Under the pieces are notes generated by a model that worked only from the letters and a program-made list of their open reading frames with translations, did not search any database and was not told the DNA's origin. From Promethearchaeota archaeon (lineage in GTDB: Archaea; Asgardarchaeota; Lokiarchaeia; Sigyniarchaeales; SOKP01): a stretch of DNA of 32,000 bases. This document shows, piece after piece, positions 17,686 through 21,985 of this stretch. The translations under genes and the position numbers were made by a program. Where the stretch lies: positions 1 through 32,000 of the forward strand of contig JAUWGH010000002.1 of assembly GCA_030606485.1 (NCBI GenBank). The letters are read 5' to 3'. Numbering within the stretch: the stretch's first letter is position 1; each line of letters begins with the position of its first letter.

Positions 17686-18588
17686 TTGTCCTTAAGAATT
17701 GATTTTTTACGCCATTTTATTTTATTAGCTGAAGAGAAAAGTTTTTCTAATGTTGCAGATAAAATTTCGATAACTCAAAGCGCTTTATCTCAACAAATTG
17801 AGCATTTAGAAAATTATTTTAAATGTAATCTTATTGATCGGAGTACAAGAACATTCAAATTGACTAAACAAGGCGCGATTTTATTAAAATATTCAAAAGA
17901 TATAGTGTCCTTATTTGATAAAAGTCAAAAAGAAATATTTAATCTCAGTAAAGAACTTGTGGGAACAATATCCATTTCTGCATCAACTATTCCCGGAAAT
18001 CATATATTACCAAAATTTATTGCGGATTTTAAGAATAAATATGCTAATGTTACAATCAATATTTGGATAAAAAATAGTAAGCGGAGTTTAATAGATCTAA
18101 AAAATAAGCAGGTTGAATTTGCTGCAATTGGGAGTTTTATAAAGGAGGACCAAGAAAAATTTGAATATTTTCCAATTTTTACTGAGAATTTAGTTTTTAT
18201 TTGTGCTCTTGATCACGACCTGGTTAGAATTAATAAAGGAAAAGTCCTTTTTGAGGATTTAATTAAATATCCTTATATTTCCCGTGAAGATGGTTCTGGT
18301 ACAAAACAATTTGCTATGGAAAATTTAGAAAAGTATGATAAATTAAATCAATTGTTAGAAATGTCAAGCAATGAATCAATAATTTCTGCAGTAAGTAAAT
18401 CAAATGATATATCAATCATTAGTGAGATGAGTGCCAAAAAAGCAGAAGATGCAAAACTAATTAAAATAATAAATATTTCAGATATACCCTTTTTAAGAAG
18501 AGAATTATTTTTTATTAAAAATAAGGGAATAAAATTAAATAAAGTTGCAATAAAGTTTTGGAATTTTATTTATGACAATAGAGATTAA
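17686..18588 (+). CDS. LysR-type transcriptional regulator (CysL/selenium-metabolism-associated type)
   Basis: N-terminal HTH (SFSNVADKISITQSALSQQIEHLE...LIDRSTR...LTKQG), ASTIPG, and REDGSGTK typical of the CysL-like binding domain. Confidence 0.92.
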   Translation: MSLRIDFLRHFILLAEEKSFSNVADKISITQSALSQQIEHLENYFKCNLIDRSTRTFKLTKQGAILLKYSKDIVSLFDKSQKEIFNLSKELVGTISISASTIPGNHILPKFIADFKNKYANVTINIWIKNSKRSLIDLKNKQVEFAAIGSFIKEDQEKFEYFPIFTENLVFICALDHDLVRINKGKVLFEDLIKYPYISREDGSGTKQFAMENLEKYDKLNQLLEMSSNESIISAVSKSNDISIISEMSAKKAEDAKLIKIINISDIPFLRRELFFIKNKGIKLNKVAIKFWNFIYDNRD

Positions 18589-19079: not shown

Positions 19080-19313
19080 TTGGATTCAGATGATGAATTA
19101 AATGTAGAAGGAAAATCATGTCCCATGCCCTTATTTTTAACGAAGAAAAAATTAAAACCTATGGGATCTGGAAAAACTTTGAAACTTATTGGGGATTTTT
19201 TACCAGCTAAAGAAAATATAGTCGAGTTTTTAGAGAAGGAAGGGCATGATATTTTGGATCTTCAAGAAGTGAATGATCCGTATAAATTTATTATTTACAT
19301 AAAAAAAGCTTAA
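19080..19313 (+). CDS. TusA/SirA (YedF-like) sulfur or selenium carrier
   Basis: LNVEGKSCPMP (CPxP motif); 77 aa; GAGGG SD before the TTG. Confidence 0.9.
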   Translation: MDSDDELNVEGKSCPMPLFLTKKKLKPMGSGKTLKLIGDFLPAKENIVEFLEKEGHDILDLQEVNDPYKFIIYIKKA

Positions 19314-19389
19314 TTTATTTTAGAAAGTGTTTTTTTAAAATTTTTTATATATATTTAATTATAATATAGAAAAATGAAAGGAGGTTGAG

Positions 19390-20415
19390 TTGAAAAGTAA
19401 AGAAGAGTATCGATTAACTAAACAGGTAAAGATTTTCGGTTGATCATGTAAATTAGGTCCAAATAAATTAAAGGAGTTATTAGAAAAAGTCGGGCTTGGT
19501 GGTCTTTCTGAAGATTGTTCAATTACTTCAGTTCCTAATACAGACTTATTATTGCTTCAAAATATCGATATATTTACTCCTATTGTAGATGAGCCTGAGA
19601 TTATGGGAGAAATCGCTGCATGTAATGTAACAAATGATGTTTTTGCAATGAATGTACCTGAGATACATGGAATGCTTGTTTTCCTAGCAATGGATACAAT
19701 GATGCCCATGGAGGTTGCTGAAGGAATTATGAATGGAATAATCAATTTTATGAAAAAGATTAATTCAAAAGTATTAGGGGGGCATACAATTTACTGCGAA
19801 TGGCCACTTATTGGCGGAGAAGCGTCTGGATTTGTGGAAAAAGATAAACTAATCAGAAAGCAAGGTCTAAAAGAGGGTGATAAATTAATAATCACTAAAC
19901 CCACGGGACTTCAACCAGTAATGGCTGCTTATAGAATATTAAAAAATACTCCAGAAATCTTAGAACTTTATTCAACTAATGAGTTAAAAAGTTCAATAGA
20001 TTATGCCATTGAGTTAATGATTACATCAAATCAAAATGTTGTAAAAACAATACATTCCTACGATGATTTTTCATTTGTTCATTCAATGACTGATGTAACT
20101 GGTTTTGGACTTGCAGGTCATACTAGAGAAATGCTTGAGGGTACAAATCTTTCCGCGCTAATTGAAAAAGTTCCGATCATAAAATATGCAAAGGAACTTT
20201 CTGTAGATTTCAATTATCACCTTGATTCATGTGAGGCTTCAGAAACTGCCGGAGGAATGCTTCTCGCTATAAATCCTGAGAATATTGAAGATTTTTCAAA
20301 CCGCTTGACTAGTAATAATATACCAAATTGGTATGTTGGGATAATCGATAAAAAAGAGCCCGGATTAGTAAGACTCTCCAAAAATATTGAATTTGAGGAG
20401 GTTTTAAAAAAATAA
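19390..20415 (+). CDS. selD: Selenide, water dikinase (selenophosphate synthetase) with selenocysteine at codon 18 (UGA 19441-19443)
   Basis: AGGAGGT SD then TTG 19390, in frame with the track ORF: MKSKEEYRLTKQVKIFG-U-SCKLGP, matching the SelD catalytic C/U-x-x-K. Also DIFTPIVD, GGHT, DVTGFGLAGH and ETAGG motifs; 341 aa. Confidence 0.95.
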
Positions 20416-20494
20416 TAATGATGACTATGAAATAAGCTTAAACACTTGTAAGTGGGTGCTTATTGAGTTTTTCACCTGTGAGGTGCCATCATTA
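20416..20494 (+). ncRNA. Eukaryote-like SECIS element in the selD 3' UTR (cis-acting RNA)
   Basis: AUGA (20427-30) / GA (20465-66) core, AAUAAGC/GCUUAUU helix, unpaired AAA (20440-42), apical CACUU/AAGUG mini-stem, outer UAAUGAUG/CAUCAUUA helix. Confidence 0.82.
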
Positions 20495-21985
20495 AAAACC
20501 ATTAAGCTCCTTAATAATTAATCTTAAAAGGTTATATATTAATCCCACATCAGAGATTTTTAATCTTTCACTCGGCGAATGCAAGCTTTCGATTGTTGGA
20601 CCTAGAGAAACCATTTGAAGACCACTTATCCTAGTGCTAATCATTCCAGTCTCTAATCCACCATGAATGACATTAGTTATTACTGTTTTTTTTATAAGAT
20701 TCTCATATTGCTTAACAACATATTTTAAGAACTTAGATTCTAAATTAGGTAACCACTCGGGTAACACAGGCTTTAAAAACACTTTCCAACCCCCTAATTT
20801 CCCTAATTGTTTCATTGAAACACAAAAAGAATCCAATTCACTTCTTAATATACTACGCGGATAAAGCCAAATAATTTCGTCATTTTTTTCAGTATCTATA
20901 ATAGCAAAATTGTTCGAACTTTCTACAAATCCTTCATAAATGTGAGACTTTTTAAGAACACCATTAGGGATTAAATGAGCGGTAGATAATAATATCTGTG
21001 AACCTTCTTCTGAAAGATATTTGTCTGGAAGAGATTGTTTATATTCGATTTTTAAGTTAGACTCAAATTTTTCATAATAATCCTTAATCGATGCAATTTC
21101 TTTTTTAATTAATTTATCAAATACCTTTTGATCTTTTGATTTAATACCAAATTTTGCTATAGATTTAGCAGGTATGACATTTCCTTTAGTACCCCCTTGC
21201 CATTTACAGATATAGATTTTTATTTCTTGGGTAAGAATTGATAATATTCTACCTACTATTTTAATTGCATTTGCTCTTGGTAAATGAATATCTTCTCCCG
21301 AATGCCCACTTAATAATCCTTGGCATGAAAGTTCAAAAAATTGAAGCTCATTACTTTCTTCAGGGGAAATCCAATTAAATTTTTTTGAAAATCCCACCCT
21401 TCGTCCACAAACAGAACCAATTACAACTACTTCGGCAGGTCCTCCATCTAGATTAATCATCAATTTACTTTTTATATTAAGAGTTTTAGGATCTAGATGA
21501 GTTGCTCCATCAAACCCATCTTCTTCATTCACAGTAAATAATACTTCAATGGGTCCATGAGAATCTATCGATTTATCAATTAGGATTGCTAAAGCAAGTG
21601 CTAAGCCAATACCATTATCAGCTCCTAGAGATGTTCCATCTGCGTAAACCCATTCATTATTTTCTTGAATACGTACTGGAATTCCTTTATTGAAAAAATC
21701 AAATCCTTCAGGTTTATCTGTTTCACATACCATGTCGAGGTGAGCTTGAAGCATTATTGATGGAATTGACTCTTGTCCGGATGTCGCTGGTTTTTTGATT
21801 AGGATATTTCCAACTCCATCTTGATAAATCTGAAAATCATTATTAATTGTTTTGCCTGATTCTAATATAAAATCTTTTATTACTTCACGGATTATTTCTT
21901 CATGTTTAGAAGGTCTCGGAGTTTTAGCAATAATATTTTCAAAAATATCCCATACAATTTTAGGTTCTAAATTTTCCAACACCAT
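20492..21985 (-). CDS. pepD: Aminoacyl-histidine dipeptidase (M20C peptidase)
   Basis: LQAHLDMV, GTSLGADNGIG, EEDG, NLDG, GHSG, HGGLE and HSPSE motifs. Confidence 0.92.
   Translation of the reverse strand: MVLENLEPKIVWDIFENIIAKTPRPSKHEEIIREVIKDFILESGKTINNDFQIYQDGVGNILIKKPATSGQESIPSIMLQAHLDMVCETDKPEGFDFFNKGIPVRIQENNEWVYADGTSLGADNGIGLALALAILIDKSIDSHGPIEVLFTVNEEDGFDGATHLDPKTLNIKSKLMINLDGGPAEVVVIGSVCGRRVGFSKKFNWISPEESNELQFFELSCQGLLSGHSGEDIHLPRANAIKIVGRILSILTQEIKIYICKWQGGTKGNVIPAKSIAKFGIKSKDQKVFDKLIKKEIASIKDYYEKFESNLKIEYKQSLPDKYLSEEGSQILLSTAHLIPNGVLKKSHIYEGFVESSNNFAIIDTEKNDEIIWLYPRSILRSELDSFCVSMKQLGKLGGWKVFLKPVLPEWLPNLESKFLKYVVKQYENLIKKTVITNVIHGGLETGMISTRISGLQMVSLGPTIESLHSPSERLKISDVGLIYNLLRLIIKELNGF

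Follow-up and report, generated by a model that had tools for sequence, protein, structure and literature searches.

Can a gene whose predicted start lies downstream of an in-frame stop codon in fact begin before it, with the stop read as an amino acid? This question is raised by selD, the gene for selenophosphate synthetase (selenide, water dikinase), at positions 19390-20415 of the window, by which we mean the whole stretch of 32,000 nucleotides that was analyzed. Our findings make it very probable that this is a Lokiarchaeia SelD in which the UGA at codon 18 is decoded as selenocysteine (Sec) by way of a type II SECIS element and the genome's own tRNA-Sec, PSTK, SepSecS and EFSec/SelB. The locus represents a complete and well-supported instance of the Sec system already described in Asgard archaea, and it introduces no new principle.

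Reading frame and start codon of selD

Standard ORF calling (translation table 11) returns 19552..20415 on the forward strand, a frame of 287 aa that starts with TTG. Read directly from the sequence, the frame is open for a further 54 codons upstream of 19552, as far as the TTG at 19390. The full frame comprises 341 codons, from TTG 19390 to the TAA at 20413-20415, and is interrupted only by the TGA at 19441-19443, which occupies codon 18 within the peptide I-F-G-U-S-C-K. The features of the gene are as follows:

19379-19385, forward strand: Shine-Dalgarno-like AGGAGGT, 4 nt ahead of TTG 19390, read directly
19390-20415, forward strand: selD (selenophosphate synthetase / selenide, water dikinase), 341 codons with predicted Sec at codon 18, matched by TIGR00476, NF010705, Pfam and PDB entries
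19441-19443, forward strand: predicted UGA selenocysteine codon (U18) in G-U-S-C-K, aligned with Cys17 of E. coli SelD, TGA in 31 of 31 fetched orthologues

Directly upstream, the frame is closed by an in-frame TGA at 19375-19377, and no start earlier than TTG 19390 is possible. The GGAGGT of its Shine-Dalgarno-like sequence is kept before selD in orthologues of the same genus, and more distant orthologues carry GAGGTGA followed by an ATG where TTG 19390 stands here, which supports that start. Direct reading of the sequence before 19552 revealed no Shine-Dalgarno sequence. A preliminary description of the locus had given the called start at 19552, the 54-codon extension to TTG 19390 and the AGGAGGT ahead of it, and every one of these coordinates holds. 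It had also warned that automated annotation would truncate the active site. This is indeed the case, as the first 54 codons that the default ORF lacks contain the catalytic Sec/Lys loop of SelD. In-frame TGAs elsewhere in this genome need equal care. A scan for sigma-70 promoters and intrinsic terminators, which is uninformative for an archaeon, found no terminator.

Family assignment and catalytic residues

Judged from its sequence matches, the product of 19390-20415 is SelD, and the family assignment is unambiguous. The read-through product, with 341 aa and an expected mass of about 37 kDa, scores 191.6 bits against TIGR00476, above the cut-off of 125, and 274.8 bits over residues 4-337 against NF010705, just below the 291-bit cut-off of that model, which we take to be the archaeal SelD equivalog and the best NCBIfam model for the SelD of the window. 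Pfam matches to AIRS in the N-terminal part (PF00586, 1e-11) and to AIRS_C (PF02769, 9.7e-11) reveal the PurM-like two-domain architecture. The nearest solved structures are the selenophosphate synthetases of Leishmania, human, Aquifex and E. coli, with PDB matches down to 1e-35.

The catalytic residues of E. coli SelD are Cys17 and Lys20. The BLASTP alignment with SelD of E. coli K-12 runs without gaps over residues 3-33 and places U18 opposite C17, C20 opposite C19 and K21 opposite K20, while in the PDB alignment U18 also stands opposite the first Cys of GCSCKL in Leishmania SelD (5l16). Both alignments therefore put the TGA on the catalytic Cys/Sec column, where the preliminary description had located it. 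Further BLASTP columns pair D60 with D68, N79 with N87, D83 with D91 and D235 with D227; D42 falls one position off E. coli D51 in BLASTP and lies opposite the Asp of MDCS in Leishmania SelD. In E. coli SelD, D51, D68, N87, D91 and D227 are the conserved ATP/metal ligands. The E. coli enzyme (PDB 3u0o) belongs to the same fold family as the protein described here and agrees with it in the catalytic loop and at the aligned Asp/Asn positions, but it carries Cys17 rather than Sec, is 27% identical and involves no recoding.

Conservation of the in-frame TGA

Codon 18 is TGA in all 31 fetched orthologues, which share 64-90% identity with the gene of the window, and the peptide around it is conserved on both sides (YRLT.QVKI.G-U-SCKLG). 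The relatives with named records are MAGs of Promethearchaeia/Promethearchaeota, that is, Lokiarchaeia. On a broader scale, a SelD homologue was found in 112 of the 121 genomes of the same order, and nearly every match contains one TGA. Many genomes of the same family carry two tandem selD copies with one TGA each (e.g., G057:C16:9960-12355 and G100:C26:15721-18271), and the genome studied here has one Sec-selD only.

The DNA is also found in cold-seep and marine-sediment metagenomes. Independent contigs from 4 runs of 3 other studies span 19441-19443, and they include strain variants that are about 89% identical here, with variants listed at 19425 and 19470. No change of the TGA appears among the differences listed for these contigs, a comparison that covers assembled contigs rather than raw reads and leaves 41 more differences outside those listed. 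TGT or TGC at this position, for which the preliminary description had proposed a check, is accordingly listed in none of the independent contigs and occurs in none of the 31 orthologues.

A type II SECIS element in the selD 3'UTR

In addition to the features of the preliminary description, we identified a SECIS element with covariation support in the 3'UTR of selD. Its fold begins directly after the stop codon, about 1 kb downstream of the UGA, with a minimum free energy of -20.3 kcal/mol and a z of -2.6. It consists of the following parts:

20416-20494, forward strand: whole 3'UTR SECIS structure, with a lower stem of 20416-20423 paired with 20487-20494 that encloses the SECIS arm and a second hairpin
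20427-20430, forward strand: 5' half of the SECIS core (AUGA), with U, G and A invariant in 28 sequences
20431-20464, forward strand: type II SECIS arm, with a 7-bp upper stem (20431-20437/20458-20464), the bulge UUAAA (20438-20442) and a ministem (20443-20446/20451-20454)
20465-20466, forward strand: 3' half of the SECIS core (GA), with A invariant and G replaced by A in two sequences (GA_AA)
20473-20485, forward strand: second hairpin CACC-UGUGA-GGUG, 20473-20476 paired with 20482-20485, downstream of the 3' GA and ahead of the lower stem's 3' strand, with a U5 run at 20468-20472 just before the hairpin

The 3'UTRs of 28 distinct selD orthologues were aligned (alignment A1), and RNAalifold yields the same fold from A1 independently. 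The AAA of the SECIS bulge is invariant in these 28 sequences. When pairs were counted in A1 on the written structure, 94.5% of the cells were paired and 16 of the 21 pairs had changed on both sides. None of 500 shuffles reached these values, and the pairing breaks down once the 3' partners are shifted by 1-3 columns. All four helices covary; changes on both sides affect 5 of the 7 pairs of helix 2 and 3 of the 4 pairs of helix 3.

A covariance model built from A1 (R1) scores 92.4 bits at this locus, its sole significant match in the genome. A second match, at C10:206902-206972 (E 0.72), was dismissed as lying inside a coding frame. In five genomes of other families in the order, R1 produced no match among the 150 scored of thousands of candidates.

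None of the Rfam SECIS families reached its gathering score in the window, and none matched at E<=10 over 19300-20700; the sole Rfam matches, to snoRNA and FourU families, are at chance level. SECISearch3 likewise fails on Asgard elements, according to the text of PMC11227280. The criteria given in that text for Asgard type II eSECIS-like elements are a GA_[G/A]A core, an upper stem of 7-15 bp, a bulge of 4-12 nt, a ministem of 2-8 bp and an apical loop of 2-6 nt. The element described here agrees with this definition in its upper stem of 7 bp, ministem of 4 bp, loop of 4 nt, bulge of 8 nt (UUAAA plus GGU), AUGA/GA core and 3'UTR location. The selD 3'UTR element is one that would work like a eukaryotic SECIS, yet it is not a member of an Rfam SECIS family. 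Its assignment as a predicted SECIS is supported by motif, position and covariation.

The gene that follows, at 20492-21985 on the reverse strand, encodes an M20-family peptidase and is convergent with selD. The final 3 nt of the lower stem of the SECIS are shared with its stop codon, at 20492-20494, and the space between the two genes is filled wholly by the SECIS. Another SECIS form was observed in the 3'UTRs of three orthologues (L035, L040 and L049): the core is again AUGA, but the upper stem is longer (8-9 bp in L040) and the apex consists of one A-rich loop, which makes this form type I-like; a small hairpin comes after it.

Selenocysteine machinery and other candidate selenoproteins

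The genome comes from a cold seep and comprises 3.75 Mb in 13 contigs, with 29% GC, an estimated completeness of 100% and a contamination of 4.65%. It contains a single tRNA-Sec(UCA), at C2:189906-190018 on the reverse strand (locus L001), which scores 47.1 bits against Rfam RF01852 (cut-off 47). ARAGORN describes it with a 9-bp acceptor stem, a 7-bp D stem, a 4-bp T stem and a UCA anticodon, and no second tRNA with a UCA anticodon was found in the genome. A 24-nt intron in the anticodon loop is also predicted by ARAGORN. The tRNA-Sec lies immediately upstream of the SepSecS gene (387 bits) and about 3.4 kb from the gene for SelB/EFSec (263.8 bits, cut-off 242). On contig 10, a gene of the KTI12/PSTK family (121.9 bits), a Pfam family that PSTK shares with KTI12, is a PSTK candidate. 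The SepSecS, SelB and PSTK genes contain no internal stops.

Other candidate selenoproteins belong to the FlpD/VhuD family, in which 4 of the 11 matches have two in-frame TGAs each and the other seven have none. The four candidate di-Sec genes are:

C1:58616-58984: FlpD/VhuD gene with two in-frame TGAs
C8:217822-218190: FlpD/VhuD gene with two in-frame TGAs
C12:106298-106666: FlpD/VhuD gene with two in-frame TGAs
C10:156140-156505: FlpD/VhuD gene with two in-frame TGAs

The proposal in the preliminary description that this gene marks the genome as a selenoprotein user, to be examined by a search for the Sec machinery, is supported by the presence of tRNA-Sec(UCA), SepSecS, EFSec/SelB and a PSTK candidate, together with the four two-TGA FlpD/VhuD genes. 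The genome is clearly a selenoprotein user in which TGA is otherwise a stop, and it should be treated as such in annotation. Within the window itself, ARAGORN found no tRNA. In intron mode, it reported a 'tRNA-Stop (tta)' with an 11-nt intron at G000:C5:43871-43976 on the reverse strand, probably a false positive.

In the mechanism that we propose, EFSec with Sec-tRNA-Sec would decode UGA18, directed by the 3'UTR SECIS and presumably by a protein that recognizes it. The loop with Sec18 and Lys21 would then catalyze the ATP-dependent formation of selenophosphate, which would serve as the selenium donor for SepSecS. As the maker of this donor, SelD would at once be a selenoprotein and belong to the Sec machinery.

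Alternative readings of the TGA

The TGA could be a true stop, in which case the product would be the 287-aa protein from TTG 19552 without the catalytic loop, and the 17 codons upstream of the TGA would be a leader peptide or non-coding. This reading coincides with the ORF that standard calling returns, and TGA does act as a stop elsewhere in the genome, as the uninterrupted SepSecS, SelB and PSTK genes indicate. However, the start at 19552 has no Shine-Dalgarno sequence, and in the 31 orthologues the in-frame conservation of residues 1-54 extends both before and after the TGA. These residues line up with the catalytic loop of the E. coli enzyme and with the conserved Asp of Leishmania MDCS. 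Moreover, a covarying SECIS follows the gene, and a SelD without the Sec/Cys-x-x-Lys loop would miss its catalytic residues, all of which makes a true stop very unlikely. Equally improbable, in our assessment, is a full-length gene in which a near-cognate tRNA or general UGA suppression reads the UGA as Cys or Trp, producing a Cys or Trp SelD. Such a reading has a precedent in other systems, where low-level misinsertion of Cys or Trp occurs at Sec UGA codons when selenium is limiting. It is at odds with the complete Sec machinery and the single UCA tRNA of this genome, with a conserved SECIS, and with the strict retention of UGA, rather than UGU or UGC, in more than 100 genomes.

The chance that the gene is a pseudogene, or that an assembly or sequencing error affects 19441-19443, is smaller still and close to negligible; nothing other than the in-frame stop itself speaks for it. 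The identical TGA in every fetched orthologue and the contigs of three other studies, with no listed difference at 19441-19443, exclude this explanation for practical purposes, on evidence that is strong but not absolute. Elsewhere the frame is also unbroken, with every aligned catalytic residue retained. Decoding of UGA18 as Sec in a full-length SelD is the reading that we retain.

Comparison with known selenocysteine systems

The arrangement of a Sec-containing SelD with a eukaryote-like SECIS is already known and documented across Lokiarchaeia and other Asgard archaea, and the preliminary description was right not to present the class as new. In Mariotti et al. 2016 (PMC4989117), the SPS of Lokiarchaeota is deduced to contain Sec, and its distinct, type II-like SECIS is described with a shorter main stem and an extra apical stem. 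The gene of the window corresponds to this Loki-like SPS: it is archaeal-type and has a single in-frame UGA where Sec is placed, and its SECIS combines a kink-turn-like AUGA/GA core and a short main stem with a further stem at the apex. Whereas the 2016 sequence was a gene fragment whose N-terminus was deduced from related metagenome sequences, the gene is complete here. The tRNA-Secs also differ, with a 31-nt intron in the T loop in PMC4989117 and the predicted 24-nt intron in the anticodon loop in this genome.

Huang et al. 2024 (PMC11227280) analyzed over 400 Asgard genomes and found no selenoprotein as widespread as SelD, which occurs in more than 90% of the Sec users. The SelD SECIS elements in that work belong mainly to type II; their core is AUGA_GA, the bulge contains adenines, and the lower stem has G[A/U]G_C[U/A]C pairs. 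The element of the window is likewise of the AUGA_GA type II form, and its lower stem contains GAUG/CAUC. Two tandem selD genes are described for many Loki and Thor genomes in PMC11227280, in contrast to the single copy here.

Among other archaea, the Sec-SelD of Methanococcales and Methanopyrus has Sec at the equal N-terminal position and depends on the PSTK/SepSecS pathway, but its SECIS is of the archaeal GAA_A-bulge type, as opposed to the AUGA/GA kink-turn type found here (PMC4989117, PMC11227280). Eukaryotic SEPHS2 (SPS2) resembles the gene of the window in that its catalytic residue is Sec and its 3'UTR carries a type II SECIS. The differences from eukaryotic SECIS elements are that the Rfam models miss the element of the window and that its upper stem is only 7 bp long. 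In addition, eukaryotes need SBP2, whereas no SBP2 was found in Asgard archaea according to the text of PMC11227280. The eukaryote-like SECIS of Asgard archaea is relevant to the question of how eukaryotic Sec decoding arose from archaea.

A second hairpin and a three-way junction in the SECIS

With the second hairpin (helix 4) placed after the 3' GA and ahead of the lower stem's 3' strand, the selD SECIS is a three-way junction, a layout that we take to resemble a k-junction. In the 28 sequences, all 5 pairs of this hairpin have changed on both sides, and 95.6% are paired. Inspection by eye of selD 3'UTRs from other families in the order showed a hairpin at the equivalent place; the SelD proteins there are only 41-46% identical, and one of these genomes is GC-rich.

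The text of PMC4989117 and PMC11227280, as distinct from their figures and supplements, contains no mention of this hairpin, and the SECIS model in the text of PMC11227280 covers only the core, upper stem and apical region. The second hairpin may be undescribed, and it offers a small lead on how the selD SECIS is recognized without SBP2.

Gene cluster upstream of selD

Three genes directly precede selD on the same strand:

17686-18588, forward strand: LysR-type regulator of the selenium-metabolism subtype, NF040786 222.2 bits (cut-off 250), next family 118 bits
18714-19061, forward strand: DsrE-like protein with a CGVC motif, Pfam DsrE 1.4e-23, C-terminal part of YedF matched weakly (E 0.0016)
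19080-19313, forward strand: TusA/SirA-like protein with a CPMP motif, Pfam TusA 9e-18, match to YedF (TIGR03527) positions 1-57 at 33.5 bits, under the cut-off

The best NCBIfam model for the LysR protein is NF040786 ('selenium metabolism-associated LysR'), yet its score stays under the cut-off. This gene is probably linked functionally to selD. YedF, which combines a SirA-like CPXP and a DsrE-like CGXC motif, is linked to SelD and was reported to be absent from archaea (Lin et al. 2015, PMC5322559). The DsrE-like and TusA-like genes have the same motifs and domains as bacterial YedF, but they are split, and the model matches are weak; judging by these motifs and domains, the pair looks like a split YedF.

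The LysR-DsrE-TusA-selD synteny is kept only in the four genomes of the genus. Outside the genus, a tblastn search (E<=1e-5) for the DsrE-like, TusA-like and LysR proteins in the 1.5 kb flanking selD gave no match, so the synteny is not a general feature of Lokiarchaeia. The LysR-DsrE-TusA cluster beside selD may be undescribed.

These observations can be joined, tentatively, into one reading that we consider possible but rather unlikely as a whole: that the selD SECIS of Lokiarchaeia is a k-junction-like three-way junction whose additional arm may be peculiar to selD and required for recoding or for its regulation, and that in this genus selD stands next to a LysR-DsrE-TusA group, the last two members of which resemble a split YedF. 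The LysR-DsrE-TusA-selD cluster provides a small lead on selenium delivery to SelD.
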